The notes beneath the pieces are model-generated. The model saw nothing but the letters and a program-made list of their open reading frames with translations. It did not search any database and was not told the DNA's origin. A stretch of DNA of 64,000 nt from positions 182,539 to 246,538 of the forward strand of contig CAZNEE010000003.1 of NCBI GenBank assembly GCA_964572255.1, given 5' to 3'. Shown piece after piece: positions 1 to 30,895 of this stretch. This stretch comes from an uncultured Planctomycetia bacterium (lineage in GTDB: Bacteria; Omnitrophota; Gorgyraeia; Tantalellales; Tantalellaceae). Made by a program: the position numbers and the translations under genes. Positions within the stretch are counted from its first letter, which is position 1. Each line of letters begins with the position of its first letter.

Positions 1-3000
1 CTTCACTTATATTAAAAAACGGATCGGCAGGTGTAACAGCCTTATTGACAACTTCCATGACGTCGGCATTGATGCCGAAGAAATCCACATCCATCTCGCC
101 GTCCGCAAGTTTTTCGGTATAGAGAAGGTCCCCCGTCTGGTCTCTGTGGTAAGTAACATCCATGAACTCGGGATTCGTGGCTGCCTCGTAATCCTTGACT
201 CCTGTCGCGACGATACCGCGTACATTATTGATCTCCGCCAAAGCCTGGATTGCCGTGGCATACGCCACTGAAAGTGCATTTCTTGCATCTATCACCAGAT
301 CCAAAAGATCGGGTTCCTCTCCGTCGATCTGATCCCATTGATCCAAAGCATCCTGAATGTCGCTTACAGCATCTGCGGTCTTTTGTTTTAAGGCGATATA
401 TGCGGGGTTGGAAGGATCCCTGTTAAGAATCTCCTGTGCCTTTTGATCGGCTGTCTGTGCTTTTGTTAAAGCTGCTGATAAAACATTTATTATCTGCCAG
501 GCTAACTGCTGCCCTTCGTTGGTTTCATACGTAATTTTGATACCAAAAGGACCGGTTATAGTGTGAGTTGTGCCATACCAGCCGTTATATGTCCCATAAT
601 CATTAATCCACTCTATGATCTCGTCGGCGGCCTCAATAACATCATAATAATACCAAGTGCCTGTAAAAATATCTCCCCAGAAATACGAAACTGTCTCCGA
701 TTCAAAATACGTGTTAACGACGCTTGATAAATTGATCAGCGCATCAGCATCAAGATCATTATTGTCTATATAAACTTCGCTCTGCAGAAGTTCGTTGATC
801 GTCTGAGTATCACCGCTTAAGACTGATCCTCCGACTTTTTCTATATGTTCGGCCGCTATCTCGTAGCGTATATCATATTCTTCCGGATCATAGGCATCCG
901 CATCTGTTGCCGGCGGATATGAATCATAGGTGTATGTATGTACTTCCGTGGATTCGACGGAATTATCGCTATCGGTAAGATATTCCGTTATCGTGGTCGA
1001 TTCTATCTGAAGCGGAGCATGAGCCGGATTAGATATATCAGTATCGCTGATATTAAAGACATTGACAGTGGTTGTTTTTCTCACGGCATCGCCGTCAATT
1101 ATGCCGTCATTATTTTGATCCGCGTCCCCATAATAATCTTCAGTGGTTCTTTCACTAAGGACTTTCGTCATGGACGGATAAGCCAGGCTGTAACCTTCCT
1201 CTTGAGACTGCCTGCTTGAAAGAGGATCCTCAAAAGTACTGGTCATCCTTCTGGTTGTGTGTATTATCTCTTCTTCGGTGGTTTCGCCAAAATCCCTGAC
1301 ATTGCCGGACTCAATAACTTGACTTACGAGATTGCCTCTCTCGTCATATTCCTCGGCCAACGTGCGTGAAAAGTCTATTGAACCGACATTTACGCCATAA
1401 TTTATTCCTGTATCAGTATTCAAAATGCCAACATGGTAGTAATTTCCCACAAGCCGGTCTATCCATCCCCAGTCTCCTGCGCCGGCAATAAGCGCATCGT
1501 ATTCAGTTTCATATCCCTGATGATCATGGTAGTTCATGATCAGATGCTTCAAATTAAAAGCCTCTCCACCGCCCTCGACCAGATGATAATTGTATGTTTC
1601 CCCTTCTATAAATGTCGGGTTCACCAGAGATTCGCCTACCTTGTCGTATTTTATGCTGGAAGTCGTTTTGGTGACCATGCCGGGCTGAGAAATACCCTGC
1701 GTGACACTGTTTATGTACGCGACATCCCCTCCGGCCTCAGTTGTATAGACAGTTGTAACTTCGGTCATGAGCATCTTATCCAAAGACATTTCTGAACCCT
1801 GAAGAAAGAGGAGATAGTCATCTTCATGCGTGTTATAAAGGTTGACGACCTGATCATAAATACCTTCAACTTCAGGTATAACAAGATCGATCTGATCTTC
1901 CAGTTCCTGTAACCTGGGTGAAATGTCCGCTATAACAGCGCTGTCAAGCGGCCATGGTGTGATCCAATAACTGAGTATCACATTGCATTCATCTGCCATG
2001 CTTTCAACTGCATCTATAGCATCCTGTAAAGTTTGAACAAAATCAGACGAAGGATCCAGCTGAGCAATTTCCTGCGCCAAAGGAAGTCTGTTTGTTAACA
2101 TGGTTGAAATGTTCGAAAGAAAATTCAATGCATTATTAATATCATTCATCATCCTCAAGAACTCTTGTTCCTTATTTTCCCAATTTCTATTTATAGCGCT
2201 AACTATCTGATCGTGCGCTGTATCTAAATAAGGTAAAACACCGGCTTCCATGGGAGGATCCATCGGAACAACATAAAATAACGCGTCCCGTATTTCTCTG
2301 CTGTTAACAGCTATTTGATAACTTGCCTCAAGCGCGGCTTCATCAAATTCTTCATATTCTATTCTTCTTGAGAATATGTTGCGGTCTTTTTCGTCATATT
2401 CCATATCATGCATCTCGAAATGATATGTCTGGTCGCCGCGTCTTCCGGATTCCTCGTAACTGGCGATATTGCCGTCTTCGTTATAGGTGATATTTTCCCT
2501 GGTAAATTCGTAATACATGCCGGTAGAAGTCCTGCCCTCTTCGCTGAACTGCATCATCTTGCCGTCAGCGTCATAATAGATATCCGATCTCACGCTCTGG
2601 AAATACCTGAGGTCGCCTTCAAAGGTCCTTATGGTCTGTACGTCCGTATAATCGGTACCGGCTTCGTGAGCTCTCTTGTAGCCCGTCTCGGTGCCGGGAT
2701 CGAACCATCCGTCACCGTTAAGGTCATCGTAATACAGATATATGGCGGTATTGGAAACATAATCCATCCCGTTCTCGTCATGAGTGTAATACGCTATCAT
2801 GTCGGTGGATTCTTCTCCCACCCCGCCCTTATAGTATGTTTCACTCGATAGGACCACGCCGTAAGTCTGTCCGAAAATAACCAGTTCTATAGCTCTTGAT
2901 ATCTGCCCCAAATGATATTCGCCGTAAGTTTGCCCCGGCAAAAGAACTCTGGCGTTGTCCAGAGCTTGAAGCAATGGATCAAGAAAATCCCGGTCCGCTT

Positions 3001-6000
3001 CGCCCCTGTCATGAAGATCGGTCACCCATGCTATAGCCTGATCAAGGGCATTTTCGCCCTGGTTATAGTCTTCGTCCTCAAAATAGGTATATGCGTCTTC
3101 AAGTGTTGTTCTGATAAGATCCAATTCGCTTGAAATTTCGTCAGCTGCAAAGCGCGATACGACCTTGGCCATGTAATCGCTCCTTGAGGCGTTCGAGGCT
3201 GTCGTGTAATCTGCCGCGTACAAATACTGGTTGATGTGGAGCTTGTTCACCGGATCACCCGATGTGTAGATCCAGGCATAATCGGATATTTCCTCGTTGT
3301 AATCTCCAATAAAGAAGGTCTTTGACCTTCTGCCTGTCGTGTAATCGCTGTGGACGAGAGGCACAATATCGGTTATCAGATCGCCTTCCAATAGTTTCTC
3401 TGTATTAAAAGTGGTCGAACTTACCTTCGGCGTTTCAAATACGGTATCGGAAGCCCTCTGTTGACCGTCCCCGTAGAAATTGACAGTGATCTGAGTATTG
3501 TCAAATTCATCCGGCCCGGGGGCCCCGCGGCCTTCCTTGCTGTAACTGATGGTGTAGTCGGCTATCTCATAACTCAAGGCTCCAACAAACCATGTTTCGG
3601 TCCTTCTTAAAGCGGGCGGTTCATTAACCGCATTAATAACGCCGTTATCCTCATCTATATCCAGGCCCTCTTTCTTGTTATATGTAACTGTGTGGGTCAA
3701 AGCGCCTGTAGCGGCATCATCATAGTAATAAATGGTCGTATTTCTGATGTTCGTCCCGTCCGTCCTGTACGCGTAAATCCAGAGAACCTGTTCCTCTCCT
3801 CTTTCCTCGTTCCTGTAATACGTAGCCTGCTGGAGGGTGTCGGCAATATCGGTGCCCCTTCTGGTCTCGCTCTTTGTCATGAACGACTCTTCGCTGACGC
3901 CTTCTTCATCCGCCAAGCTGTATCTTCCTTTTAGAGGATCGAAATTGAAATAATAATACCAGGTGCGGTTATCGATGGTCTCACCGTCGCGCTTATAATT
4001 GTCCGTATAATGTGATAATTCCGCGCCCGCATAACCGTGATAATAAGTCTCGCTTATCTTCATGACCGCATCCGGATCGGCTATACTAAAAGTGCCCAGG
4101 TCAGTATCTACGCTTAATCCCAGTTCCTTCCTGTAGACCGTACTTATCTCCATGCTACCGTCAGGCCTGTAGGTGTATTTACTTGTCGTCTTCACGGTAG
4201 TGCCGTCATACCTGTATTCCTGGCTCCAGTTCAGCCTTTCCTCGCCTTTTTCCTCGCCCTCGTAATAAGAGATCTGTTTTACAGCTAAGGGATCGGTGCC
4301 TCTGACCGTTATCGACCTGGTCATGTAAGAATCGGACCTTATGTCGGGAGCAGTGGCTTCGGTGTATCTTCCGGCATCAGTATAATAATAGTACCAGGTA
4401 CGGGTGAATACTGATTCATCCGGCAGGAATACATCGGTATAATCCGTTATTTCATCGCCCTTGCCGCCTGAATACCATGTCTGGCTTCTCTTCGCGCCAA
4501 GCGCCGCGGACGGCGGTATGGTATGCGGGTTATCACTGTCAGGAGTCCTTACAACATCGTCTTTATATATCGTAGTGTACTTAAGGCTGTTATCGTTCGC
4601 GGGATCATAGACATACAGAGTCGTAGTCCTGACCTCTTCACTGGCATTGTAATCCTGGCTGAATGAGATCCTCTCTTCGCCTTTTTCATCGCCCTCGTAA
4701 TAAGAGATCTGTTTTACGGGTGAAGTAAGTTCATCATCGCCTCTTGTAGTTATAGTCCTTGTCAGATACGATGCAGGCCCTATTCCCGGCGTGCTCGCGC
4801 GGGCGTACTTATGATCATCATCCGAATCATTGATAAAGTAATAGTACCATGTGCGCGTGGTAAGAGCGTTATTGCGGAAGCTGTCGGTGTAATCGATGAT
4901 CTCTTCGCCCCTATCGCCGTGATAGACCGTTTCACTCTTCTTGTCCAAAGTGAATACTTCAGCTTCCGGGCCCAGTTCAGGCGGTTCGACCCCCAGATCC
5001 TGGAACCGTTCTTCACCGTCAATATATATCGTGCTCTTCTGGAGGCTGTCATCAGGATTGTAGGTATAAACCGTAGTAGTCCTAACCTGCGTGCCGTTAA
5101 AGCTGTATTCCTGGCTCCAGGAGATCTGCTCTTCACCTTTTTCGGCGTTCTTGTAATAAGAGACCTGCGAGGTATACTGGCCGCTTTGCCTTATCCTTAC
5201 GTTTATGGTCCGGGTGATATATGAATACACCTCAGCATCCGCGGCCTGTGTGTACCTGTCCGAATCCGTATTATAATAATAAGTGATCTTACTATCCTCT
5301 ATATCGTTCTTGTAGTTGATGACATAGTCTATTATTTCCTCGCCTCTTTCCAGCTGATAAAAAGTGCGGCTTTCTTTTTCGAGGCTAAGCGCAACAGGAT
5401 CGGGGGCAGGTGCGGGATCGCCCGGCGCTGCCGGACCCCTTTCCGTATCGTCCTTGTAGACCGTTGTCCGCACTAATCTGTCATCAATGTTGCCGTATTC
5501 ATATATGGTCGTTGTCTTCACGTTTTCGTTGAAATTGTATTCCTGGGTCCAGCGGATCTGTTCTTCGCCTTTTTCCGTGCCTATGTAATAAGCTGCCTGC
5601 TTTAATTTATTAACACCCGCGGGATCTCTTCTTGAGATGGTCTTCGTCATGTAGGAATCTACATTGATCTGCGTATCAGACGCTTCGGCGTACCTATTTG
5701 CATCGCTGGCAAAGTAATAATATTTAGTGCGTACCGATTCTATTCCGTTAGTGTAGCTGCTTGCGTAATCGGCGATTTCTTCTCCTTTATCGCCTACAAA
5801 AACCGTCATGTTTCTTCTTACGGCATCGTCATCGCCCAGGCCGTCTTCATCTATCGCTACAGTGCCTGAAGTGTAGTCCGCGACTATGCCAATTTCGTCC
5901 CTATACACTACGGTTGATACTAGCGCATCTTCCGCGTCATAATTATAATTAGTCGTTGTCTTGATGGCTGTCGCGAGGTAATTATATTCCTGGCTCCAGG

Positions 6001-9000
6001 AGATCAGTTCCTCGCCCTTGACGGGGTTCTTGTAATATGTCTCCTGTTTAATGAGCGCATCTGGTGCCTGACCTCTTCTTGTCACGGTCCTGGTTATGTA
6101 AGAGTCGGGCCTTATGTCGCTGTCCGTCGCATAGGCGTATCTTTCAGCATCCGTGTGGTACTGGTACCATGTACGGGTATCAAAATTGCCGCTGAGCTTA
6201 TAATTGTCCGTGTAATTTGAGATCTCTTCGCCCTTGCCTCCTACAAACCATGTCTGGCTCTTTATTGCCCCCAGATCCGCAGACGGCGGTATAGTGCGCG
6301 GATAATCACTTTCGGGAGTTCTTTCAACGGTATCTTTATAAACCGTGCTGGATTTCATGCTTCCGTCAGTCGCGTCGTTATAATCAAAAATAGTCGTCGT
6401 TTTTACGGTTAAACCGTCATATTTATAATCCTGCGAGAAGTCCACCTGTTCTTCGCCTTTCACATCGCCGCGATAATATGAGACCTGTTTCATCCTGGGA
6501 TCAGCCCCCAAAGGATCCCTTATTATGACCGATTTTGTCATGTAGGAATCAGGATTAACACGGCTATCTGTAGCTCTGATATATTTATCCGTGTTATCCA
6601 CAAAATAATAGAAATACGTACGGGTATCTGTTGTTGTGCCGTCGCCCTTATAGTTATCGGTATAATTAGCTATCTCCTCGTTCTTGTCCCCGACGAACCA
6701 TGTCTGGCTCTTGAGAACGCCAAGCGGCGGTACAGGTACAACCGGAGGATCGACCTTAGGATTCTTGGATTCCGGCGTTCTTACTTCGTCATCTTTATAA
6801 ACTGAAGTGAACTTGAGGTTCCGGTCATCCGGATCATACGTATAAATAGTGGTCGTTATGACATTACTGCCCGTGTAATCGTATTCCTGGGTCCAGGAAA
6901 CCTGTTCTTCGCCTTTTTCCTCGTTCTCATAGTAGCTTATTTGTTTTAAAGCGCCTGCGGGATCAGTGCCTCTTCTCACTTCGCTCATCGTCATGAATGA
7001 ATCGGGGCTTACGCCGGTTTCCGTGGCGCGGGCGTATCTGTCTGCGGGACTGTAATAGAAATATCTTGTGCGGGTGTAAACATCTTCGCTGGCTGTGAAA
7101 CTGTCAGTATAATCGGCGATCTCCTCTCCCTTGTATCCGGCAAATACTGTTCTGCTTAGCTTTATGCCAAGATCGGCCGGGTCGGGCCTTGGAGCGGGAT
7201 CAAGAACTCCCGGAGGACCTCTCTCGGTATCATCTTTATACACTGTGCTTGACTGCATACTGCCGTCAGAATTATAAGCATAAAGCGTGGTCGTTCTTAC
7301 TTCATCCCCCATGTAGTTGTATTCCTGGCTCCATGCCGTCTGCTCTTCGCCTCTTTCCTCGTTCTCATAATAAGAGATCTGCCTTAATCTCTGGGTGCCA
7401 AGAGGATCCCTCACGGCCCGTGACTTTGTCATGTAAGAGTTGGGATCCAATGAGGCCAAGGCAGCGCCTTCATACCTGTTGGAATCCGTCCTGTAAAAAT
7501 AGGTTGTTCTTACATCGATCTCTGTGCCGTCCTCTTTGAACATATCAGTATAATCAGCAATTTCATCACCCTTATCTCCCTGGAACCATGTCTCGCTCTT
7601 TTTCACAAGACCAAGCGTTCCCGGATCCGGAGCGAGATAATCCGGCGCCGAGGGTATTCTCACCGTATCGTCTTTATACACGGTAGAGCGTTTCATGCTG
7701 TCATCCGTATTATATTCATATATAGTAGTAGTTATTACTTCCTCTATATGGTATTTGTATTCCTGGCTCCAGGCGATCTGTTCTTCGCCCTTTTCATCGC
7801 CTCGGAAATAAGCTACCTGTTTTAAAGAGGAAGTCGTGAAAGCCCCTCTTCTGGCTTCAGTCATTGTCATGTAAGAGTCGATCGTCACGCCGGCATCACT
7901 TGCTCTTGCAAAATTATCGGCATCGGTGTGATAAAAATATGTGGTGCGTGAAGTAACGATAGTGTTCTTGTAGTTAAATGAATAATCCGCTATTTCATCG
8001 CCCTTGCCGAGGTGTATATCAAAGAAGGTGGAACTCTTGATATTGGCCGGGTCTATATGATCCACCGCATCTTCGCCTGTGAACCCGGCTGTTGCTTTGT
8101 AGGTGTCCTGCCGGATCATCGCGTCATCCGCTTCCGCCGCACTTGCCCGTTTCTCACCAACGTAATAGAAAATACTGACTTCCGCGACGGTCGTGCCGTT
8201 CGCCGCGTAATTATAGGTGAAATCGGTTATCTCATTCCCCTTCCCTATATGTATATCAAAATAGGTCGAACTTCTGCGGTTACTGATAGCCACTTCGCCT
8301 ATTGAAAATGCTTTATGCGTATCCTGGCGCACCATGGCGTCTTCCGTTCCCGCCAGAGACGCCCTTACCTCGCCCTGATAGTAGAAAATACTTATAGTCC
8401 TTACGGTAGTTCCGCCTTTCTTGTAGCCGTATGAATAGTCCGCTATTTCATCGCCCTTGCCGAAACGCGTATCAAAGAAAGTAGAACTTGTGCGGGTTGT
8501 CTTATTCTCCTCATCGATAAACTGTATAGCATCATCCCCCTCATGGCCTTCCACGGCTTTATATGAATCCTGTTGGATCATTGCGTCTTCCGATTCCGCA
8601 AGGCTGGCTCTTTTGCCTCCCCAGTAATACGAAATTGACACTGACCTCACGGTCGTACCATCGGACCTGTAGCCGTATGAATAATCGACTATTTCATCGC
8701 CTTTGCCCAAATGTATGTCGAAGAATGTCGTGCTCTTGCGGTTGGTATCGGCTACCAGTAAAATCGAAGTTGTCTCATAAGTATGCTGTTTTATCATGGC
8801 GTCTTCTGTTCCCGCTTCGCTTGCCCTCACGCCGCCCTGATAGAAGAAAATATTAACCGTCCTTGCGGTCGTGCCGTCGGACCTGTAGCTGTATGAATAA
8901 TCGGCTATTTCATCGCCCTTGCCGAGAACGGTACTGAAGAATGTCGAACTTCTGCGGTTGGTATCTGCTATTGTATTTATGGAGTTTGTTACATGCGTGT

Positions 9001-12000
9001 CCTGGCGGACCATGACATCTTCCGCCTCGACAAGGGATGCCCTCTTAGCATCCGCGCTGTAATAGAACACTCCTACTGTTCTTACGCTTATACCGTCGCC
9101 TCCATAGTTATAAGTATAATCGACTATTTCGTTGCCTTTACCCAGGTGAATATCGAATATGCTTGAACTCTTGCGGTTGGTCTTATTTTCCTCATCGATG
9201 TAGTTGATAGCGTCCTCTCCCGTGAACCCGACAACGGTCTTATAGGTATCCTGCTGCACCATCGCGTCTTCCGTCGATGCCAGGCTTGCCCTTACCTGTG
9301 TAGTATCCTGATAGTAGAATATACCGACCGTTCTGACGGTAGCACCGTCACCGCCGTAAGTATAGGTATAATCTGATATCTCCTCGCCCTTGCCGAGGCC
9401 TGTGTAGAAGAAGGTTGAACTCTTGCGGTTGGAAACTGCTGCCGCGAAAATAGAATCTGCTTTGTGAGTATCCTGCTGTATCATCGCATCAGAAGTATTT
9501 GCTTCACTTGCCCTCTTGTCGCCTTGATAGAAGAAGACACCCACGGTTCTTACGGTTGTCCCGTCAGCGGCATAGTTATACGTATAGTCAGAAACTTCAT
9601 CTCCCTTGCCGAGATGTGTGTCAAAGAAGGTGGAGCTTCTGCGAGTCGTGATACTTATATTAAGGATCGAATCGGTTTTGTGCGTATCCTGGCGGATCAT
9701 CGCGTCTTCTATGCCTGCCGCGCTTGCCCTTACGCCGCCCTCATAGAAGAAAACTCCCACCGTAATTACTGTTGTTCCGTCACTTGCATAAGTATAGGTA
9801 TAATCCGCTATCTCATCGCCCTTACCGAGATTGGCATCAAAGAACGTTGAGCTCTTACGGTTGTCCTCGCTTATCTCTCCGATAGAAGTCGCTACGTGCG
9901 TGTCCTGACGCACCATTACATCTTCAACCCCTGATTCGCTTGCTCTTTTTTCGCCCAAATAATAGAAAACACCTACTGTTCGCGCGGTCGATCCATCGCC
10001 GCCGTAATTATAGGTATAATCGACTATCTCATCGCCCTTGCCGAGATGTGCGTCGAAGAAACTTGAACTCTTGCGGTTTATGATAGCTATATTATCGATC
10101 GAATCCGTGATATGAGTATCCTGGCGGATAAGTACATCCTCCGACTCTGCCAGAAAAGCTCTCTTTTCGCCGTAATAATAAAATACGCCTACCGATCTGA
10201 TGCTTGTCCCGTCACTACCGTAGTTGTATATGTAATCGGCTATTTCCCCGCCTTTACCGAAATGAATATCAAAGAAGGTAGAACTCCTGCGTTCTTTCTT
10301 AGTGGCAATATCGATGTGATCCACCGCGTCCTGGTCCGTAAAACCTTCGGCTGCCTTATATGAATCCTGCTGGATCATGGCGTCTTCCGTTCCCGCTTCG
10401 CTTGCTCTTCTTTCTCCCTGATAATAGAATATCCCGATCGTTCTCACGGTCGTTCCGTCGCTGGCATAGTTGTACGTGTAATCCGCGATCTCATCGCCCT
10501 TGCCGAGACGTACATCAAAGAAGGTCGTGCTCCTTCGGGTGGTATCAGTTATTGAAAGGATCGAATCCGCCCTGTGGGAATCCTGTTTCATCAGCGCGTC
10601 TTCCGAACTCGCTTCGCCCGCCCTCTTATTATCATCATAGAAGAAAACGCCTACTGTCTTTACTATAGTGCCGCCTAAAGCATAGCTGTAAGTGTAGTCC
10701 GCGATCTCATCGCCTTTCCCGTAAGTTATATCGAAGAATGTAGAACTCTTTCTGTTTTCTTTGGTTGTATCATTTACCTCTCCTATACCGCCGACTTCAT
10801 ATGTATCCTGCTGTATAAGAGAGTCTTCATCAGACGCAAGGGAAGCTCTCTTGTTCCCTTCATAATAAAATACTCCTACAGTTTTAACTGTTGTACCGTC
10901 ATTGCCGTAACTATAAGTATAGTCGGCTATTTCATCGCCTTTGCCTATATGAGCATCGAAGAATGTCGAACTCTTGCGATTGGCATTCTCCGCCAGATCA
11001 ACAGAAGCGGCAACATGCGTGTCCTGCCTTATGAGCACATCATCCGCTTCTGCCGTATTTGCCCTCTTTTCGCCCTGATAGTAGAAAACCCCTACGCTTC
11101 TTACGCTTGTACCGTCGCCTCCGTAGTTATAGGTATAATCGACTATTTCGCTGCCTTTGCCGAGATGAATATCGAAGAAGGTCGAATTCTTTCTGTACTC
11201 TTTAGTCGCATCATTTACCTGCGTTATGTGTGATACCTTATATGTATCCTGCCGGATGAGTGCATCCTGCGAACCTGCTACGCTTGCCCTGTTGTCCCCC
11301 TGATAATAGAAAACTCCCACCGTTCTTACCACCGTTCCGCCGACACCATAGTTATACGTATAATCTGATATCTCATCGCCCTTGCCCAGATGTATATCAA
11401 AAAAGGTTGAATTTCTGCGGTTAGACAATGATACGTTGAGGATCGAATCCGTCTTGTGTGTATCCTGGCGAACCATGGCGTCTTCTGAGCTGGCTTCATT
11501 TGCTCTCTTTATGCCCTGATAATAGAATATCCCTACTGTCTTTACTATCGTGCCGCCCGAAGCATAACTGTATGTGTAATCGGACACTTCATCACCTTTA
11601 CCGAATCTAATGCTGAAGAAGGTCGAGCTTTTTCTGCCTTCTTTTGTTCCGGTATCAATAAAATCTATTGCGTCATCGCCTCTTTCGCCCTCTTCGGTCT
11701 GATATGAATCCTGCTGGATCATGGCGTCCTCCGAACCGGCTGAAATTGCTCTCTTGTCCCCTTCATAATAGAAAATGCCTACTGTCTTTACTGTAGTTCC
11801 GTCGGAAGCATAATTATACGTAAAATCTGCGATCTCATCGCCCTTGCCGAGATGTGTATCAAAGAAGGTCGAGCTCTTGCGGTTACCCTCGGCAATAAGA
11901 TCAACTGAACTTGCATTATGAGAATCCTGTCTGATAAGAAGATCTTCAGCTTCAGCAAGTGATGCTCTTTTTTCTCCGCTATAGTAGAAAACCCCTACTG

Positions 12001-15000
12001 ACCTTACCGAAACTCCGTCACCGCCGTAGTTATAGGTATGGTCTGATATTTCGTTGCCTTTACCGAGATGTATATCGAAGAAAGTCGAACTCTTGCGGTT
12101 AGTCTTATTCACTTCATCTATAAAGAGGATCGCGTCCGATCCGGTATGGCCTTCCGTGGTCTTATATGTATCCTGCTGTACCATAGCGTCTTCCGTTGAC
12201 GCCAGAGATGCCCTCAACGCGGTAGTATCTTTATAATAGAATATCCCTATACTTCTGACTGTCTCACCGTCATAACCGTAATTATAAGTATAATCGGCTA
12301 TTTCATCGCCTTTACCGAGGTGGATATCAAAGAATGTTGAATTCTTACGGTTAGAAAGTGCTACATTGAGAATTGAATCTGTCTTGTGGGTATCCTGCTG
12401 GATGAGCGCGTCTTCTATTTCGGCTTCGCTCGCCCTCTTCGCTCCTTGATAGAACATTATACCTACCGTTCTTACCGTAGTTCCGTCACCGGCATAAGTA
12501 TAGGTATAATCCACTATCTCATCGCCTTTACCGAAACGGTGATCAAAGAAGGTTGAACTCTTTCGGTTAGTATTAGCGATCTTTAAAATTGAATCTGTCT
12601 TGTGTGTATCCTGCTGGATAAGCGCATCCTCTGTGCTTGCAAGAGACGCTCTCTTGCCGTCCTGGTAGAACATCACACTTACGTTCCTTACCGTCGCGCC
12701 GTCGGAAGCATAGCTGTATGAATAATCAGCTATTTCATCGCCCTTACCGAAACGCGTGTTGAAGAATGTTGAGCTCTTCCGGTTGCTTTGGGCGACTTCC
12801 CATATTGAAGTGGCTATGTGAGTATCCTGTCTTATCAGGGCGCCTTCGGGGTCGGACAAGCTTGCCCGTTTTTCGCCTGTATAATAAAAAACGCTCACGG
12901 TCCTTACGGTCGAACCGTCATAACCGTAATTATATGAGTAGTCTGCCGTTTCTTCGCCTTTGCCGTGAGTCGTATCGAAGAAAGTCGAACTCTTTCGATT
13001 GGCATTTTCTACTAGATCAATAGACCCGGCTTTATGCGTGTCCTGGCGAACAAGGGCATCTTCCACGCTGGCGAGACTGGCTCTTACAGGATCTGGTTCT
13101 CCCTCATAATAGAATACTCCCACGGTCCTTACAAATTCTCCGTCACCGCCGTAGGAGTAATTATAATCTGCTATCTCATCGCCTTTCCCTAAATGAATAT
13201 CAAAGAAAGTCGAACTTCTGCGGGTTGTGGTGGTTACATTATAGATCGAATCTATCTTGTGGGTATCTTGCTGGACCATTGCGTCTTCAACATTGGCAAG
13301 ATCGGCTCTTACAGGATCTGTTTCTCCCTCATAATAAAAAACGGCAACTGTTCTCACGGTGGTCCCGTCACCGGCATAGTTGTAGCTATAATCCGCTATC
13401 TCGTCGCCTTTGCCGAGATGTGTGTCAAAGAATGTTGAACTCTTGCGGTTGGTATCAGCAATATTAAAAATAGAATCTATCTTGTGGGTGTCCTGCCGAA
13501 TAAGCGGATCATCCGCTTCCGCAAGGGTCGCTCTTTTGCCTCCATGGTAATAGAAAACACCCACTATTCTTACGGTCGTTCCGTCAAGCCCGTAGGTATA
13601 TGAATAGTCCGCTATTTCTTCGCCCTTGCCGAGCTGTGTAGCGAAGAAAGTTGTATTTTTGCGGTTGGTTTGGGCAATATCGTAGATTGAATCCGCTTTA
13701 TGAGTATCCTGCTGTTCCATAGCATCTTCAATAGCTGCCCCGCTTGCTCTATTCCCGCCCTCGTAATATAGAACCGCTACCGTTCTCACGGTCGTTCCGT
13801 CGCCTGCATAGTTATAACTGAAATCTGCGATCTCATCGCCTTTACCGAAACGCGTATTGAAAAAGGTTGAACTCTTGCGGTTTGCATATTTGATCTTATC
13901 GATCGCGGAAGTTTTATGAAGGTCTTGCCTTATCAGGGCGTCTTCCGTTTCCGCCTCGCTTGCTCTTATATCACCCTGGTAATAGAAAACACTCACTGTT
14001 CTTACAGTTATTCCGTCGCCGCCGTAACTGTATAGGTAGTCCGCGATCTCATTGCCTTTGCCATGATCTACATCAAAAAATGTTGAGGACCTGCGGGTAG
14101 TAAGGGTTACACTGTAAATTGAATTTGTCTTGTGCGTGTCCTGTCGGATCATCGCATCCTGCGAACTCGCTTCGCTGGCCCGCTTGAAAGCTTCATAATA
14201 GAAAACACCAACAGTCCTTACGGTTGTTCCATTGGAAGAATAATTATAGCTGTAATCCGCGATCTCATCGCCTTTGCCGAGATGTATATCAAAAAATGTT
14301 GAGTTTCTCCGGTTAGTTTCAGCAACTTTATAAATTGAATCTACTTTATGTGTATCCTGCTGTATGAGCTCATCTTCCGATTCAGCCAAAGTAGCTCTTT
14401 TACCTCCAACATAATAAAAAACTCCCACTGTCCTTACGGTCGTGCCGTCACTGCCATAAGAGTAACTGTAATCTGTTATTTCCTCGCCTTTTCCGTGTTG
14501 TACAGCAAAGAACGTGGAACTCTTCCGGTTGGTTTCGGCAATATCGTAGATCGACCCGGCTCTATGCGTATCCTGCTGTACCATCGCGTCTTCCGAACTT
14601 GCTTCGCTTGCCCTCTTGCCCCCCTGATAATAGAAAACACCAATTGTTCTCACGGTTGTTCCGTCAGAAGCGTAGGTATACGTGTAATCGGCCACCTCAT
14701 CTCCCTTGCCGAGATGTATGTCAAAGAATGTTGTATTGATACGGTTATCTAACGCAACATTGCCGATCGAATTCGTTTTATGGCTGTCTTGATAGATAAG
14801 GGCGTCTTCCGGTCCGGCTACGCTTGCCCGCTTATCTCCCTCGTAATACATAACGCCCACTGTCCTTACCGTTGTACCGTCTCCGGCATAACTATACGTG
14901 TAATCGGCTATTTCCGATCCTTTACCGAGATGCGTATTGAAGAAAGTCGAGCTCTTGCGGTTGGTATCGGCTATTTTTAAAATTGAATCCGTCTTATGTG

Positions 15001-18000
15001 TATCCTGCCGGATCAAAGCATCCTCTACGCTGGCCAGAGATGCCCTCTTTTCGCCCTGGTAATAGAAAACGCCTATTGATCTCACTGACACCCCGTCGCT
15101 GCCATAGGTGTAAGAGAAGTCCGCTATTTCGTCTCCCTTGCCGAGATGAATATCAAAGAAGGTCGAACTCTTGCGGTTGGTTTGGGCGACCTTGAAAATT
15201 GAATCTGTCTTGTGTGTATCCTGCTGGATCATCGCGTCTTCTACGCCTGCTTCGCTTGCCCTCTTGCCGCCCTGATAGAAGAAAATACCTACGTTTCTTA
15301 CTGTAGTTCCACCTCCCGCATAATTATAGCTATAGTCTACTATTTCTTCACCCTTGCCGAGATGTATATCAAAGAACATTGAGCTCTTGCGGTTGGTATC
15401 AGCTATTTTAAAAATTGAATCCGTCTTATGTGTATCCTGCTGTACTAATGCGTCTTCTGTCCCCGCTTCACTTGCCCTCTTTATGCCCTGATAATAGAAA
15501 ACACCCACACTTCTTACGGTCGTTCCGTCCAAGCTATAGGTGTAGGTATAATCCGCTATCTCGTCGCCTTTGCCATACGTCGTATCAAAGAAAGTTGAAC
15601 TTATACGGTTAGAAACGGCACCCTGAAAAATAGAATCTGTCTTGTGTGTATCCTGCCGGATCATCGCGTCTTCTGACTCCGCTACGCTTGCTCTCTTGTC
15701 TCCTTCATAATAGAACACTCCCACTGTCCTTACCGTTGTCCCGTCACCTGCATAGTTATAGCTGTAATCGGCTATTTCGTCGCCTTTCCCGAGATGTATA
15801 TCAAAAAAGGTTGAACTCTTGCGGTTAGTATCAGCGATCTTGTATATTGAATCCGCCTTATGTGTATCCTGCTGAACCATCGCGTCTTCCGATCCGGCAA
15901 GAGATGCCCTATTATCATCCTCGTAATAAAAGACATTAACCGTTCTTACGGTCGTACCGTTAGAAGCATAGGTATAGGAATAATCCGCTATTTCGCCGCC
16001 TTTGCCGTGAGTTATATCGAAGAAAGTCGAACTTCTTCGGTTCTCCTTGCTTGCCTCATTAATAAAGGAAATAGCATCCGATCCGGCATGACCTTCTGTA
16101 GCCTTATATGTGTCCTGCTGGATCATCGCGTCTTCCGTTCCGGCAAGAGATGCCCTATTCCCTCCCTCGTAATAGAAAATACCTACGTTTCTTACTGTAG
16201 TTCCATTGCCCGCATAATTATAGGTATAGTCTGCTATCTCTTCGCCTTTACCGTGATGTATATCAAAAAAGGTTGAACTCTTGCGGTTAGTATCAGCGAC
16301 CTGAAAAATAGAAGCTATCTTGTGGGTATCCTGCTGGATCATCGCGTCTTCTACGCCCGCTAAAGACGCTCTCTTTGCGCCCTGATAATATAGAACACTC
16401 ACGGTTCTTACTGTAGTACCGTCGCCGCCGTAATTATAGGTATAGTCCGCTATCTCATCGCCTTTTCCGAGATGTGTTTCAAAGAAGGTAGAACTCCTGC
16501 GGTTAGCCAAAGCTGCATTGCTGATCAGACCTGTTTTATGCGTATCCTGGCGGCTGAGAGCATCTTCCACTTCTGCCAGAGACGCTCGTTTATCCCCTTG
16601 ATAATAAAATACGCCTACTGTTCTTACGGTAGTTCCGTCGCCCGCATAATTATAAGTATAATCGGCAACTTCCTCGCCTTTACCTAAATGTATATCGAAA
16701 AAGGTCGAACTTACCCGGTTAGTATCGGCGACTTTGTAAATTGAATCTGTTTTATGGGTATCCTGTCGGATCATCGCATCTTCCGGTCTTGCCAAAGATG
16801 CCCTTCTTTCCCCTTCAAAGAAGAAGATGTTTACAGTCCTTACGGTTGTTCCGTCACCGCCGTAATTATAGGTATAATCTGTTATTTCTTCGCCTTTGCC
16901 GAGATGTATGTCAAAGAAAGTGGAGCTCTTGCGGTTGGCATCGGCTATTTTGAGGATAGAATCGGTTTTGTGCGTATCCTGGCGGATCATCGCGTCTTCC
17001 GATCCCGCAAGATTGGCTCTATTGTCTCCCTCGTAATATAAGACAAGAACATTTCTGACCGTTGTGCCGTCACCGGCATAGCTATAAGTATAATCCGCTA
17101 TTTCGTCACCTTTACCCAGGTGGATATCAAAGAAAGTGGAGCTTTTGCGGTTGGTATCGGCAATATTGTAGATCGAATCTGCTTTATGCGTATCCTGACG
17201 AACAAGAGCATCTTGCGAACCTACTTCGCTTGCCCTCTTTTCGCCTTCGTAATATAGAACAGATACCGTCCTGACCGTTGTTCCGTCACTTGCGTAACTG
17301 TAAGTATAATCCGCGACTTCGTCTCCCTTACCCAAATGGATCTCAAAGAAAGTGGAACTTTTGCGATTAGTTTTATTGACTTCATCTACATAATCGATCG
17401 CATCCTGATCCGTGTGATCTTTGTCTGCCGCATACGTATCCTGCTGGATCATCGCGTCTTCCGCTTCCGCAAGATCAGCTCTCTCGCCTCCCTCGTAATA
17501 CATTATTCCTATAGTCCTTACCGTGGTACCGTTAGACGCATAGCTATATGTATAATCCGCTATTTCTTCGCCTTTACCGAGATGAGGATCAAAAAATGTA
17601 GAGTTTACCCTATTATCCAGCGCTATTGTTCCTATTGAATCTGTCCTGTGCATATCCTGACGAACAAGGGCATCTTCATGCTCCGCCAAACTTGCTCTTA
17701 CATCTCCCTGATAATAAAAAACTCCCACAGTTTTTACAGTTGTTCCGTTGGAAGTGTAATTGTAGATGTAATCCGCTATTTCTTCGCCTTTACCGAGATG
17801 TATATCAAAGAAGGTTGAACTTGTACGGTTATCTAAAGCGACATTCGAAATTGAATCCGTTTTATGGGTATCCTGCTGGATCATTGCGTCTTCCGAACTG
17901 GCTTCGCTTGCCTTCACATTGCCCTGGTAGAAGAAAATACCGACCGTTCTTACGCTTGTTCCGTCGGACGCATAGCCATAGTTATAATTTGCGATCTCAT

Positions 18001-21000
18001 CGCCTTTGCCGAGATGTATATCAAAAAAGGTTGAACTTGTGCGGTTCTCATCCTTTACATTGTCGATCGAATCCGTCCTATGTGAATCCTGCTGGATGAG
18101 GGCGTCTGTTACTTCCGCTAAACTTGCTCTTACATCATCCTGATAATAGAAAACCCCCACTGTTCTTACAACCGTACCGGTACTGTCATAATTGTAAGTG
18201 TAATCCGCGACTTCATCTCCCTTGCCGAGATGTACATCAAAGAAAGTCGAACTTCTGCGGTTATCTAAAGCGACTTTTGAAATTGAATCTGTTTTATGAG
18301 TATCCTGCTGTACCATCGCGTCTTCCACTTTTGCAAGAGACGCTCTTACATCCCCCTCATAATACATAACACCAACAGTTCTCACTGTAATGCCATCACT
18401 TGCATAATTATAGGTATAATCCGCTACTTCCTCACCCTTGCCGTGATGTATATCAAAGAATGTTGAGTTTGTTCGATTGGCATCTTCTACTGCACTGATC
18501 GAGGTAATGTTATGAGTATCTTGTCTGATCAAAGCATCATCTGTTCCTGCCAGAGATGCCCTATTGTTACCTTCATAATACATAACACTTACTGTTCTTA
18601 CGGTCGTTCCGTCACCTGCATAATTATAGGTATAGTCGACTATCTCGTCTCCCTTGCCGTGATGGATATCAAAGAAAGTGGAATTTTTACGATTGGTATC
18701 CGCAATTTCGTAAATCGAATCTGCTTTGTGGGTGTCCTGCTGGACCATCGCGTCTTCCAAGCCCGCTTCACTCGCCCTTACACCGCCCTGATAGTAGAAA
18801 ATACCTACCGATCTTACGGTCGTTCCGTCATTCGCGTAGGTATAAGTATAGTCTGATATCTCATCGCCCTTACCGAGATGTATATCAAAGAAGGTCGAAC
18901 TCTTTCGGTTTTCCTCGGCAATACTGTTAATTGAGTCCGTCTTATGCGTATCCTGCTGGATCATCGCGTCTTCCGCTACCGCAAGAGACGCTCTTACATT
19001 CCCTTCATATAAGAAAACGCCCACGGTTCTTACTGTTGTGCCGTTAGATGCGTAACTATAGGAGTAATCTGCTACCTCATCGCCTTTACCGAGATGAATA
19101 TCATAATATGTTGAACTTCTGCGGTTATCTAAAGCGACATTGCCGATCGAATCTGTTTTATGGCTATCCTGGCGTATCATCGCGTCAGCAGCTCTTGCAA
19201 CGCTTGCTCTTCTTTCCCCTTCATAATAGAAAACACCTACTGATTTCACATTTACACCGTCAGAATAACTATAGGTATAATCCGCTATTTCCTCGCCTTT
19301 CCCGAGATGTATGTCAAAGAAAGTCGACGCCTTACGGTTTGAATTGTTTACGTCTCCAATAGTGTCTGCCTTGTGTGTATCCTGCTGAATAAGCGCATCG
19401 TCCGCTCCTGCAAGATCCGCTCTATTCCCTCCCTCGTAATAGAAAACCCCTATTGACCTTACTACTGTTCCGCCCGCTCCATAAGTATAGGTATAATCCG
19501 TTATTTCATCGCCCTTACCAAGATGAGTGTCAAAGAAAGTCGAACTTACGCGGTTATCATTCTCTACTAAGTCGATTGATATGGTTCTGTGGGTATCCTG
19601 CTGGACCAATGGATCATCCACTCCGGCCAGGCTTGCCCTTACGCCTCCATCGTAGAAGAAAACACCTACGGTTCTTACGGTCGTCCCATTAGAAGCATAG
19701 CTATAAACATAATCCGCTATTTCATCGCCTTTACCTAAATGTATATCAAAGTATGTAGAACTTTTCCTGTCTTCAAAAGTCGTGTCGTCAACTTCATCTA
19801 TAGACGATTTCCGGTAGCTATCCTGACGGACCATTTCATCGTTCGTACTGGCCAGACTTGCCCTTATCTCGCCGTTATAATAGAACACGTTCACTGTTCT
19901 TACATCCGTTCCATTACCCGCATAGTTATAAGAATAATCCGCTATTTCCTCGCCCTTGCCGTTATGAATATCGAAAAAGGTGGAGGATCTTCTTGTTTCA
20001 ATGTCATCTAACGCATTCTGCAGTGAATCCGCCCTGTGTGTATCCTGCTGGATCATCGCATCTGCCAGAAAAGCTGCACTTGCCCTTTTGTCCCCTTCAT
20101 AATAGAAAATCCCGACGCTTGTAACGGTCGTGCCGTTAGAAGCGTAACTATACGTATAATCAGAAACTTCCGAACCCTTCCCTAAATGTGTATCAAAACG
20201 TGTCGTGGATATTCTCGTATCGATATTATTGACAGCTTCAGTTATTGATGCGGCATCATGTGAATCCTGTTTAGATAGCGGGAAATAACTTTCAGAAACG
20301 GAAGCCCGGTCGTCATTATCCCCGTAATAAAGGATGTTCACGGTTTTTACCGTCACGCCGTCCGGTTTATAGCTGTAGGTAAAATCCCCGATCTCTTCAC
20401 CCTTGCCGAGATGGATATCAAAAAAGGTGGACGATTTTCTTGTAGTAATATCGGCCAACGCGGATGCCAGTGAATCTGTTCTATGAGAATCCTGCTGGAT
20501 CATCGCATCTTCCGGAGTTGCATCTACGGCCCGCTTATCACCTTCGTAATAATATATACTCACGTTCTTGACCACAGTCCCGGTTTTATCATAATTGTAA
20601 GTATAATCCAGGACCTCTTCACCTTTTAGCCTTGTCGCAAAATCGAAAAATGAAACACTGTCGAGCTGGCTTACATGCGCATCGATCACGCCGTCAGGTT
20701 CGGTATCCGGGTTTAGCGGATCGATCTGGCCTCGATACGTTACCTGTCTGCTCATGCGGTCACCCGTATCGGAACCGGCTGCTCTTTGAAGGCCGGCTTC
20801 GTATAAATACACTACCGTTCTCGAAACCTCCTGGTCGGCATTATATCTTTCGGTATAGTCGTTAATTTCCTCGCCCTTGATCCTTCCTTCATAATGCATG
20901 TAATTCATGCTTGAGAGCTGTTCTTCCGCGCCGACCAAGATGCCTCTTGCGTCCGTAGCGGCCTGGATATCGGCAATTTCTCCGGAATAAACTACATTGA

Positions 21001-23524: not shown

Positions 23525-23912
23525 TTCACACCTACTAGCTTCCAGCACTTATTTATATCAAAGTTAAATACTTTTATTAATACTTTATAAAAAACTTAAA
23601 TAACATGCATAAAAAAAAGAGATTTCCACATCTCTCCCCTTTTTCCTGATACAGTATAATTATATCATATATATAGGTGAAATGCCTAAGAAAAAAATGC
23701 TAACTTTTTTTTACCTTACAAGACAGAGCTTAATAAGTATCCTTTTCCGGGATTATGAGTTATAAGTCCTTAAAAATGAAGAATTTAAGCAGCTAAATGT
23801 ACCTTTTTGTTGTTTTGCTTTTGCAATGAAAATTATTATCTTTCTCTAATACAGCTCGATCGTACCATAATATTTCTTGTTCTTCCGATAAACTTTAGCT
23901 ATACTTTATGCG
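23525..23912. promoter_or_regulatory. AT-rich divergent intergenic region between gene A (minus) and the glycosyltransferase gene (plus). It probably holds both promoters.
   Basis: 388 bp, very AT-rich, non-coding in all frames. On the minus strand an extended -10-like TGATATAAA (complement of 23551-23560) lies ~27 nt upstream of the gene A ATG. TATAAT-like motifs occur on the plus strand (for example cagTATAATtat near 23653-23658). A short AT-rich hairpin AGAGAT-ttccac-ATCTCT at 23618-23635 is followed by a T8 run on the minus strand. Confidence 0.35.
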
Positions 23913-25976
23913 ATGAAAAAAGACAATAAAACAATATTACTGCTTAGTATTTTACTTGTGATGATCGGATTCGGTGTTTACGCAAACTCGCTTCCCAATC
24001 AATTTGTTTGGGACGATATACACCTTATCAAGAACAATCAAGATATAAAAAGCATCTCTTTGGCAAATCTTAAAACGATATTCACTCATGACATAATGTA
24101 CTTCCTCGAACGCAGTAATTTCTACCGCCCTCTTCAATCCCTCTCGTACATGCTTGATTATAAACTTTGGGGAGAAAACGCTTACGGCTTCCGTCTCATC
24201 AATATACTGATCCATTGCATAAATAGCATTATTATTTTCCTGCTTCTATATCGTCTCTGGCGTAACATGGCTGCTTGCTTTTTAAGCTCACTCTTTTTTC
24301 TGGTGCATCCTTTAAATGTTTCCGCAGTTTCCTACATTGCCGGAAGAGCTGATCTACTGGCCCTCATGTTTTTATTGCTTTCAACAGTATTTCTTTTTAG
24401 ATTCAAAGGATCGGAAACGTTTTTTAATGGCGCGGTCAGCATCCTTTTTTTTATTTTCTCTCTACTTTTAAAAGAGATATGCATTATTTTCCCTGTTTTT
24501 ATTTTTGTTTTTCTATATTTTTCAAAAGAAAATTCCAAAAATTTTACGAAAAATGAGAAATTGTTTATTTCTGTATATCTTTTAATTACAGTAACTTATG
24601 TAATTTTAAGGTTGACTTTATTGAAGTTTACATCCCTGTCCGCTCAGGCCATAAATGCTCCGGATCTTTATTCGCGTCTTTTATCCGCCGCTCCATTTAT
24701 CATTACATATTTGAGACTCATCATACTACCATATGATCTCAGGATGGACAGAGATTTTCAAATACCGACAACAATAATGGACTGGCGCGTGATCGGTGCG
24801 GTGCTCTTGCTTGCCGGAATTATTTATTTTTTCATAACATACGTCAAAAAAGAAAAAACTATCGCTTTGGGAGCAGCCTGGTTCTTTGTATTGCTTTTCC
24901 CTTCGTTGAATATAATCATTCCTTTGAACGCGCCTGTATCAGAGCATTGGCTGTACATACCGTTCTTCGGGATAACGGTGATCCTGGCGTACTTGATCTC
25001 TTTAGTATTCAGGAAAGTACAACTGCCAAAAAACCTTATCTATCTTGGCTTTACATTGATACTTTCGGTTTATGCCGGAACAACGGTACACCTCAATAGG
25101 CAATGGCGAAACGCAGAAACGCTTTTTTCCTACATCACAAAATTCCAACAGGTCCACTGGCGTTCCTACTACAATCTCGGCAGACAGTATTATGAAAACG
25201 GTAAATATCAAGAAGCTATAGAAGAGCTCCAAAAAGCTATTGATGCTAATCCGGAATATTATGAAGCCCTTGTATATATGTTTCTGTCATATGCGAATAT
25301 CGGAGATATCGATCAGGCATCTGAATATTTTACCAAAGCCATAAAAGTAAAACCCAAATCCAGCATAACCTATACCATTTTCGCGCAAGCACTTAAAAAA
25401 GCAAAAAAATCAGATGATGCCGCTAAGATGTACGAAACAGCTATCCGGCTGGATGAAAAAAATATCGATGCCTATAATGCCCTGGGAATAATTTATGCGG
25501 AAAAAGGCCAATATGAAAAGGCCGAAGATATATGGAGCAAGGCCTCTAAAATAGATCCTGATTCTAAAGAAATAAATGCGAATTTAGAAAGACTTTCCAA
25601 AGTAAAAAGTGCACTTCTGACCGAACATATCAAAAAAGGAGATAAATATGCATCCGAGGGTAAATACATTTCGGCGATAAAAGAATATGAAAAGGCCCTG
25701 GAAATTGATGATAAAAATACTTCGATCCATAACAATTTAGGAGTTTTATACGGACTGACCGGAAAAGATGATGCGGCAATAGCTGAATTCGAAAAAGTCA
25801 TTGATATAAATCCAAATAACGCAGGCAGTTACAAGAACATTGCCATAATATATGCCAAATACCCCGAAAAACATGATAAAGCAATAAAATACCTCCGGCT
25901 GTATCTTGAGTTTCCCCTTCCGGATACCGAGCGAAAAAAAGTTGAAGAATCTATAGAAAAGCTGAGAGAGCAATAA
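23913..25976 (+). CDS. GT-C fold glycosyltransferase, protein O-mannosyltransferase-like (PMT_2 / TMTC type), with C-terminal TPR repeats.
   Basis: The ORF encodes 687 aa. The N-terminal ~400 aa are polytopic, with about 10 hydrophobic helices. The first-loop motif VWDDIHLIKNN and YRPLQSLSYMLDYKLWG are typical of PMT_2/TMTC-type O-mannosyltransferases. The C-terminal ~260 aa (about 25150-25976) contain at least 5 TPR-like 34-aa repeats, for example YYNLGRQYYENGKYQEAIEELQKAIDANPEY, AYNALGIIYAEKGQYEKAEDIWSKASKIDPD and IHNNLGVLYGLTGKDDAAIAEFEKVIDINPNN. Confidence 0.75.
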   Translation: MKKDNKTILLLSILLVMIGFGVYANSLPNQFVWDDIHLIKNNQDIKSISLANLKTIFTHDIMYFLERSNFYRPLQSLSYMLDYKLWGENAYGFRLINILIHCINSIIIFLLLYRLWRNMAACFLSSLFFLVHPLNVSAVSYIAGRADLLALMFLLLSTVFLFRFKGSETFFNGAVSILFFIFSLLLKEICIIFPVFIFVFLYFSKENSKNFTKNEKLFISVYLLITVTYVILRLTLLKFTSLSAQAINAPDLYSRLLSAAPFIITYLRLIILPYDLRMDRDFQIPTTIMDWRVIGAVLLLAGIIYFFITYVKKEKTIALGAAWFFVLLFPSLNIIIPLNAPVSEHWLYIPFFGITVILAYLISLVFRKVQLPKNLIYLGFTLILSVYAGTTVHLNRQWRNAETLFSYITKFQQVHWRSYYNLGRQYYENGKYQEAIEELQKAIDANPEYYEALVYMFLSYANIGDIDQASEYFTKAIKVKPKSSITYTIFAQALKKAKKSDDAAKMYETAIRLDEKNIDAYNALGIIYAEKGQYEKAEDIWSKASKIDPDSKEINANLERLSKVKSALLTEHIKKGDKYASEGKYISAIKEYEKALEIDDKNTSIHNNLGVLYGLTGKDDAAIAEFEKVIDINPNNAGSYKNIAIIYAKYPEKHDKAIKYLRLYLEFPLPDTERKKVEESIEKLREQ

Positions 25977-26078
25977 CCTCTTCTTAACAATAACTTCTTC
26001 TTTTAAAAAACCAAAATAAATGCAATTAGCTGTCTAGCTTTTTATTGCCTTAATTAGAAAAAAGTTCTATTATTTTTC

Positions 26079-26107
26079 TTGAACTAATGTGTTAAGAGGA
26101 TTAAAAT
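26079..26107 (+). promoter_or_regulatory. Candidate sigma70-like promoter for the HEAT-repeat gene.
   Basis: TTGAAC (26079-26084), a 17-nt spacer, then TAAAAT (26102-26107). It lies ~95 nt upstream of the ATG at 26201 in an AT-rich 224-bp intergenic region. Confidence 0.3.
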
Positions 26108-26200
26108 ATAGCTAGTTAAAGAACAAAAAGTGTTCTCTCATATAAAATATCAATATATTTAATATTGTTCATTATTAATATAAAAACGAAAGAGAGTAAT

Positions 26201-30829: not shown

Positions 30830-30854
30830 GAAATTATCCCTGGGTGGGAATGAC

Positions 30855-30887: not shown

Positions 30888-30895
30888 GTCCGTAT

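Follow-up and report, generated by a model that had tools for sequence, protein, structure and literature searches.

Ten tandem modules in a giant Omnitrophota protein are doublets of a 72-residue hairpin unit and may form part of a surface stalk

The 64,000-nucleotide stretch of DNA analysed here, which we call the window, covers positions 182,539 to 246,538 of contig CAZNEE010000003.1 (assembly GCA_964572255.1), from an uncultured bacterium that GTDB places in the phylum Omnitrophota. It includes a partial giant gene, gene A, whose product contains ten consecutive modules of about 146 amino acids (aa). Each module is a doublet of the 72-aa unit that forms a 56-unit array earlier in the same protein, not an enlarged single unit. 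We lean towards a reading in which the modules are the distal segment of a beta-ribbon stalk on an anchored giant surface protein, probably for cell contact. Gene A lies on the (-) strand at window positions 2..23524, as do all of its features given below, and it is the sole long stop-free frame of its region. The frame is free of stops from 23548 to 2 (23.5 kb, 7,849 codons), where it leaves at the left edge, and it encodes at least 7,841 aa from the ATG at 23524, a start backed by N-terminal alignment with seven relatives. Residues are numbered so that residue i begins at window position 23548-3(i-1).

A phmmer search seeded with one module found ten consecutive full-length copies at residues 5170-6647 (window 3608-8041, 1,478 aa) with domain E values of 1.8e-22 to 8.3e-42, and it also matched the whole upstream array more weakly (1e-8 to 1e-13). 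The original prediction, made from the sequence and its translated open reading frames, had proposed ten modules of about 146 aa, and ten tandem copies of 144-151 aa are what phmmer returned: in a common register, M1 to M10 measure 146, 147, 149, 150, 149, 147, 145, 150, 144 and 151 aa. The proposal depended on similarity from module to module, which was found throughout (E 1e-22 to 1e-42), and a multiple alignment of all ten gives a mean pairwise identity of 43% (31-54%); 17 columns are invariant, most of them Tyr, Thr or part of the GEE motif. The consensus given at that time (RT.YFYY ... DSYMTKS ... ISYYENEEKGEEQ.SWSQEY ... TTT.Y.Y ... TVYKDD) is correct, and the earlier coordinates, 3550-7940, differ from ours because that register begins about 30 residues into the module. 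Tandem Repeats Finder reports just the 72-aa array (periods 216 and 432), the DNA copies of the ~146-aa modules being too diverged, so the duplication is old, neither recent nor made by assembly.

Along the protein, M1 occupies residues 5170-5315 (window 7604..8041), with half A at 5171-5239 and half B at 5242-5313, and its first strands still resemble a 72-aa unit (STFFDIHLGKGDEIADY). M2 (5316-5462; 7163..7603) carries the linker DDTERGPPGVLDPAPRPDPADLGI. M3 (5463-5611; 6716..7162; linker DDEVRTPESKNPKVDPPVVPVPPLGV) and M4 (5612-5761; 6266..6715) are modules one and two of our structure model. M5 (5762-5910; 5819..6265) has an acidic linker without proline, M6 (5911-6057; 5378..5818) has the linker DDTERGPAAPGDPAPAPDPVALSLE, and M7 (6058-6202; 4943..5377) and M8 (6203-6352; 4493..4942) follow. 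The linker of M9 (6353-6496; 4061..4492) contains one proline, and M10 (6497-6647; 3608..4060) is the most diverged copy, with 31% identity to M1.

The doublet nature of the modules is apparent when their alignment is cut into two halves, A and B, at the LKQ motif, and each is compared with a profile of the 56 upstream units. Half A matches the 72-aa unit with an hhalign probability of 98.2% (E 3.7e-14) and half B with 94.7% (E 5.8e-8), while the two halves match each other at 75.7%; half B is the more diverged of the two, and the linker belongs to it. Aligned against two consecutive 72-aa units, one module matches over 121 columns (98.1%, E 6.9e-14), so the two kinds of profile do align to each other, as had been suggested as a check. 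A three-profile scan of gene A gives 56 single units and then a strict A-B alternation repeated ten times, the halves scoring at E 1e-27 to 1e-37, with degenerate copies flanking the repeats at residues 385-1036, 6649-6799 and 6901-6942. The modules had been described as elaborated versions of the same Tyr-rich hairpin theme, which is right about the common theme but not about the elaboration, since each is two tandem units rather than one enlarged unit. At the next level down, no 36-aa hairpin sub-repeat is detectable inside the 72-aa unit or half B (hhalign 0.1-0.3%).

Structure prediction agrees with this account. We ran AlphaFold2 on M3-M4, using an alignment of non-overlapping module pairs and two homologues, and on four 72-aa units, so that about 300 aa were modelled each time, and both models are all-beta. 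The M3-M4 model (mean predicted local distance difference test, pLDDT, 79.4; predicted template modelling score, pTM, 0.74) has eight strands per module and a short helix between strands 3 and 4, and in the model of the 72-aa units (pLDDT 68.3, pTM 0.61) each unit has four strands along with short helical turns. These counts are those expected if a module is a doublet. Half B does not have the segment that holds the helix after strand 3 in a single unit, and a long loop follows its fourth strand. Confidence in the M3-M4 model falls below a pLDDT of 50 solely at the Pro-rich model residues 132-141, a short loop at 190-197 and the chain end; a structure prediction of a module with its linker had been proposed earlier, and the outcome is an all-beta module of eight strands with a low-confidence linker. 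With a pTM of 0.74, the two-module model scores like a single rigid body, which hints that M3 and M4 hold a set position relative to each other.

From these models, the basic 72-residue unit would be a pair of beta-hairpins, four strands in all, in which the chain makes a short excursion following strand 3. In unit B of a doublet, this excursion would be gone and the unit would stop after its fourth strand, from which a poorly ordered, often Pro-rich loop of 23-27 residues would lead to the next module. The whole chain of 56 single units, ten A-B doublets and degenerate copies at both ends would then amount to more than 300 strands per polypeptide. Successive hairpins are predicted to form a single uninterrupted antiparallel beta structure, not separate globular domains. 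The stalk or fibre with two periodicities put forward in the original prediction is plausible in the light of these models.

The segments between modules bear on whether the structure is continuous. All ten modules have 23-27 aa after their last strand. Proline makes up 17-27% of this segment in six of them (M1-M4, M6 and M8) and 12% in M7, compared with 1.9% of the module bodies; in M5, M9 and M10 the share is 0-9%, and these linkers are acidic or Gly-rich instead. It had been claimed that each module ends in a Pro-rich linker: the quoted linkers exist, but proline is clearly enriched in just six or seven of the ten. In the closest relative, P0003, Pro-containing linkers occur in the first two modules only and the later ones are short and Pro-poor, and since most doublets of that protein are joined in this way, the Pro-rich loop is a lineage-specific feature. 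Judged by sequence, the Pro-rich "linkers" are variable loops and not a defining feature of the modules.

Many bacterial fibrillar adhesins are of the beads-on-a-string type, and Pro-rich spacers are common in surface proteins. The modules could likewise be independent small beta domains with the Pro-rich segments as flexible or stiff spacers, and the conserved linker length of 23-27 aa, proline of up to 27% and linker pLDDT below 50 are what one would expect of such beads. However, a two-module pTM of 0.74 is unexpected for freely jointed domains, and the homologous 72-aa array has the same strand pattern without any such linkers. Three of the ten linkers are Pro-poor, and most doublet connections in P0003 are both short and Pro-poor. 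We consider separate beads unlikely.

The reading of gene A as an anchored protein starts from its N-terminus. A leader of about 120 residues (residues 9-130, window 23159..23524), delimited by hydropathy and alignment, is common to gene A and seven relatives with an intact N-terminus (P0006, P0010, P0018, P0036, P0082, P0092 and P0115). A variable start is followed by FIEVQT, by a patch of basic residues and by a hydrophobic helix of ~17 aa, after which come QQxG[IF][AS]D, VAExLLP and a conserved membrane-proximal segment ending in KHExIxRQ. The consensus around the helix is WLKxISFFVAFIFLFQQxG[IF][AS]D. In gene A the basic patch reads RRKR and the helix is IWLRTISFFVAFIFFI (residues 50-65, window ~23354-23401), next to a QQxGF(S/A)D motif. 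Hydropathy peaks here at 2.03 (15-aa window), the maximum for gene A and its sole strongly hydrophobic stretch. The leader looks like a family-specific anchor or sorting signal, one that we could assign to no known signal type.

Composition points in a compatible direction. The net charge of the gene A protein is about -595, 7-10% of its residues are Tyr, and the repeat regions have no Cys, with one or two in the C-terminal region. With its acidity, its lack of Cys in the repeats and its high Tyr and Thr content, the array most likely forms an extracellular stalk. A further pointer comes from the relative P0036 (Omnitrophota metagenome-assembled genome [MAG] protein MBI2095508.1, 1,759 aa), which has a Peptidase_S8 subtilase domain at 1048-1323 with hairpin units on both sides, so the units can scaffold an enzyme. 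Taken together, the leader, the composition and the subtilase-bearing P0036 suggest an N-terminally anchored, extracellular and extended protein.

On this basis, the N-terminal anchor would hold the gene A protein in the cell membrane, and the doublet zone would form the outer part of the stalk (~1,480 residues), bearing the non-repetitive C-terminal part away from the cell. At 4.8 Å per strand, a simple ribbon would measure up to ~38 nm in the doublet zone and up to ~108 nm in the 72-aa array, and less if it is coiled. Omnitrophota are ultra-small and host-dependent or predatory. Giant open reading frames are common in the phylum, have few annotated domains and have been proposed to act in adhesion or predation (PMC10066038). 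The likely role of the stalk, inferred from this biology, would be contact with or adhesion to another cell.

Several points weigh against the stalk reading. At ~17 aa the hydrophobic helix is short, and instead of an anchor it could be a signal peptide that is cleaved off. The C-terminus, with any "payload" it might carry, lies past the window edge, and no homologues were found for the part that is present. Continuity of the sheet across the linker has the pTM of 0.74 as its single support, three AlphaFold2 models out of five were of low quality (pLDDT 40-60), and the alignments behind them were shallow, that of the 72-aa unit coming wholly from paralogues. Finally, template modelling scores (TM-scores) to every known structure were at most 0.34.

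This last point also matters for which known fold, if any, the repeats resemble. When the M3-M4 model was searched against the PDB with Foldseek, the top 18 matches were Rhs cores, teneurin YD shells, the BC components of Tc toxins and SGS1, with E values of 2e-6 to 5e-4, TM-scores (TMq) of 0.11-0.34 and root-mean-square deviations of 11-23 Å. The 72-aa model matched the same families plus the single-layer sheets of OspA, and in a viral library MORN-repeat proteins came first, again with low TM-scores. Rhs proteins, teneurins, Tc toxins, SGS1, OspA and MORN proteins are all hairpin ribbons, and the resemblance is therefore generic.

Those matches nevertheless raise the possibility that gene A encodes a genuine RHS/YD-repeat protein, i.e., a shell which encloses and delivers a C-terminal toxin. 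All 18 of the best PDB matches are RHS-type and the Tyr-rich hairpins contain "Y.Y..DG", and the RHS/YD shells (Rhs of type VI secretion systems, TcB-TcC, teneurins and SGS1) resemble gene A in forming long runs of Tyr-rich beta-hairpins in one antiparallel sheet. Sequence comparison gives a different answer. We scanned five gene A segments, nearly 6,500 of the 7,849 aa, with Pfam (E<=1) and also searched NCBIfam (E<=0.1); nothing meaningful was found in the scanned segments, and RHS_repeat (PF05593), RHS, DUF6531 and the TIGR01643 YD repeat had no match there. As a positive control, E. coli RhsA gave RHS_repeat at E 3.2e-69 in 10 stretches. The module profile aligned to RhsA with an hhalign probability of 0.2%, four profiles searched against RhsA with hmmsearch --max scored at most 2.8 bits, and the module profile matched nothing among PDB sequences. 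Neither an Rhs-associated core (PF03527, with its DPxGL autoproteolysis site) nor a toxin was found within the 1,201 C-terminal residues inside the window.

The architecture differs as well. The YD hairpin has a period of about 21 aa. The gene A unit is 72 aa and four strands where an RHS/YD unit is ~21 aa and two strands, with no sequence or profile similarity between them, and the gene A array is far longer and more regular than RHS/YD shells and follows an N-terminal membrane anchor. Such an anchor, together with ~77 near-regular units, is unsuited to a closed cocoon. With MORN and OspA matching equally well at these low TM-scores, and with membership of the RHS/YD family rejected by the RhsA control, hmmsearch and hhalign, the toxin-shell reading is largely refuted by the sequence and profile tests and we regard it as very improbable.

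One NCBIfam hit deserves mention: the Leptospira family LIC13212_fam matched a single 43-residue stretch in window 16049-20548 (residues 1001-2500) at E 2.2e-6, with 27 bits against a cutoff of 250, and this match may reflect a shared hairpin motif. MORN and OspA proteins, which recur among the PDB matches, are like gene A in that their hairpin repeats make elongated, solvent-exposed antiparallel sheets. The MORN period is about 23 aa. Membership of that family was rejected, since gene A differs in having a 72-aa period with no internal sub-repeat, no Pfam MORN match and low TM-scores. Among adhesins, SiiE and the RTX ice-binding and biofilm adhesins are anchored giants in which tens of tandem repeats extend a distal functional region; they are built of discrete immunoglobulin (Ig)-like (BIg) beads, bind Ca2+ and are secreted by type I secretion through a C-terminal signal. 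Gene A follows the same logic of an anchored extender but differs in its hairpin unit and its N-terminal anchor, and Pfam found no Ig or RTX domains in it.

The closest published description comes from the same phylum. West-Roberts et al. (2023, bioRxiv 10.1101/2023.11.21.568195) predicted RHS-like antiparallel "beta-helix tubules" of ~1,500 aa in unannotated stretches of Omnitrophota giant proteins, and their host proteins are either SecA-containing and rich in transmembrane (TM) helices ("Archaeovorins") or of dockerin type. Gene A shares with these tubules the phylum, a location in an unannotated stretch of a giant protein, what would be a continuous antiparallel beta structure of ~1,500 aa with small external helices, and RHS-like fold matches. 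The tubules are a structural description with no defined sequence family. Pfam found no SecA domain, dockerin or TSP3 in gene A, which also has no TM-helix cluster and just one hydrophobic helix, and we therefore rejected its assignment as an "Archaeovorin" or dockerin-type giant protein.

One specific version of the stalk reading, not an alternative to it, is that the array forms a hollow antiparallel beta helix of the tubule type, with the doublet as the period of the tube. The shared phylum, the unannotated all-beta sequence with small helices between strands, the doublet zone of 1,478 aa (near the reported ~1,500 aa) and the Rhs-like Foldseek matches which West-Roberts et al. also reported are all consistent with it, and going by the models gene A may belong to this structural class. 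On the other side, gene A falls in neither of their protein classes, and the flat-sheet OspA and MORN proteins score as well as curved ones. A hollow tubule is thus possible but, in our view, doubtful.

Gene A belongs to an unnamed family of 72-aa hairpin units, of which it holds 56 single units, 20 half-units and the degenerate copies. An exhaustive profile search of 1.84 billion cluster representatives found 209 matches at E<=1e-3, 104 at E<=1e-10 and 23 at E<=1e-30. Wherever a match is named, it is a "hypothetical protein", in most cases partial, of Candidatus Omnitrophota; Ca. Tantalella remota is among the sources. Scanning GTDB species genomes added one Omnitrophota MAG and two distant matches (31% and 23% identity), both in MAGs that carry the label Planctomycetia. 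With relatives of this kind, the window itself almost certainly comes from an Omnitrophota genome. Ten retrieved Omnitrophota proteins, including P0001, P0002, P0003 and P0011, also show the A-B alternation. P0003 is collinear with gene A 5242-6798 at 32% identity, a span that takes in the final degenerate unit and reaches into the C-terminal region, and its A-B doublets show that the doublet predates gene A. Pfam found no domains in the long relatives P0004, P0082, P0027, P0127 and P0017, and one TSP3 repeat in P0094. Two small unit-bearing fragments, L008 (a 41-kb JGI 3300041082 contig) and L009 (GCA_028715425.1), adjoin further giant genes, one of 8,701 aa without a Pfam domain and the other of 2,634 aa and carrying a TSP3 repeat. 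Some of the family's "small" members may be parts of giant genes that were called wrongly.

The 72-aa array itself occupies residues 1037-5169 (window 8042..20440), as defined by the profile scan and the DNA periods of 216 and 432. Exactly 72 aa are found in 39 of its 56 units, the remainder being 71-84 aa, and mean identity is 62%. Identity between units is essentially flat with lag, apart from a slight rise at lag 4 (0.656 vs ~0.62-0.64); this and the 432-bp (two-unit) Tandem Repeats Finder period may indicate a weak higher-order period. Eight units carry a recurrent 7-12-aa insertion after strand 4 (consensus DTYK..EG..G.DAI.FIDE.NK.NR; window ~8050-17500, residues ~2030-5165), making them 79, 82 or 84 aa long. 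They are spaced irregularly, 2-18 units apart, and the last directly precedes M1.

Before the array, residues ~385-1036 (window 20441..22396) consist of irregular degenerate unit copies (hmmsearch domain E 7e-3 to 1e-26), which are longer and are parted by very acidic loops, e.g., DPDDIDKDGDGQIDDEY. This loop has a sub-threshold EF-hand match (E 0.19), and the acidic loops of this region may be calcium-binding. Beyond M10 is a transition zone (window 2723..3607) in which half-A-like degenerate units at 6649-6718, 6740-6799 and 6901-6942 (hmmsearch domain E 1e-7 to 3e-4) lie amid non-repeat sequence; the unit at 6740-6799 is conserved in P0003. A non-repetitive, alpha-helical C-terminal region had been proposed for window 1-3100. 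This is not established: degenerate units run on to residue 6799 and again at 6901-6942, down to window ~2723. The non-repetitive C-terminal region proper covers window 2..2722 and is cut by the window edge, and no homologues or domains were found for it: Pfam, NCBIfam and PDB sequence searches were all empty, and when the C-terminal 1,201 aa served as a protein query, P0003 was the sole match, through a repeat remnant. The C-terminus beyond the window was not recovered from metagenome contigs by exact DNA search or protein-guided scan.

Long repeats invite the suspicion of an assembly artefact or a non-coding repeat, i.e., a chimeric or collapsed region that happens to be in frame, and the short-read assemblies of the same organism do all break within the 72-aa array. 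However, the frame is stop-free for 23.5 kb, the module copies are 31-54% identical as protein and undetectable as DNA tandem repeats, and the same module architecture occurs in independent MAGs. Three independent short-read assemblies (JGI 3300018080, ENA ERZ27256796 and Logan SRR14699969) also match window 18429-31416 at 99.985-100%. We give an artefact practically no credence. These three assemblies end at nearly the same places, 18429-18948 (inside the 72-aa array) and 31204-31416 (just inside the 3' end of gene B, described below).

The window contains four genes in total. A TPR protein (687 aa, 23913-25976, (+)) and a HEAT-repeat protein (1,554 aa, 26165-30829, (+)) are the only two ordinary-sized genes between the giant genes and are divergent from gene A. 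TPR and HEAT repeats are reported to be frequent in Omnitrophota giant-gene proteins. Gene B, the second giant gene (10,940 aa, 31020-63842, (-)), encodes a SecA-like motor at ~7950-8700 (SecA_DEAD E 1.8e-42, SecA_PP_bind and P-loop_SecA). Its product also has hydrophobic segments densely clustered at residues ~6150-6600 and, at ~4560-5230, consecutive helical repeats of ~60 aa. By these sequence features gene B matches the "Archaeovorin" type of Omnitrophota giant protein, and no gene A units were found when it was scanned for them.

Giant proteins take up a large share of small Omnitrophota genomes, are thought to mediate attachment or predation and consist mostly of unannotated sequence (PMC10066038; bioRxiv 10.1101/2023.11.21.568195; 10.64898/2026.06.07.730766). 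A bolder proposal, which we hold to be improbable, is that the 72-aa unit and its A-B doublet are an undescribed Omnitrophota-specific building block, with a conserved N-terminal anchor of its own, that would form a rod or hollow tube of more than 100 nm, a new beta-solenoid distinct from RHS, whose structurally distinct distal doublet zone would present or conduct a C-terminal effector to a host or prey cell. The repeat family in itself reveals no new mechanism, and tandemly repeated beta-hairpins in giant surface proteins are known as a general kind; the family is unannotated and restricted to the phylum. About 5,600 residues of one giant protein are now a defined repeat family with a unit, a doubled variant, a predicted strand layout, a conserved anchor and some 200 relatives. 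This suffices for building a family model, for annotating many "hypothetical, partial" fragments and for designing expressible two-module constructs with which to determine the structure.

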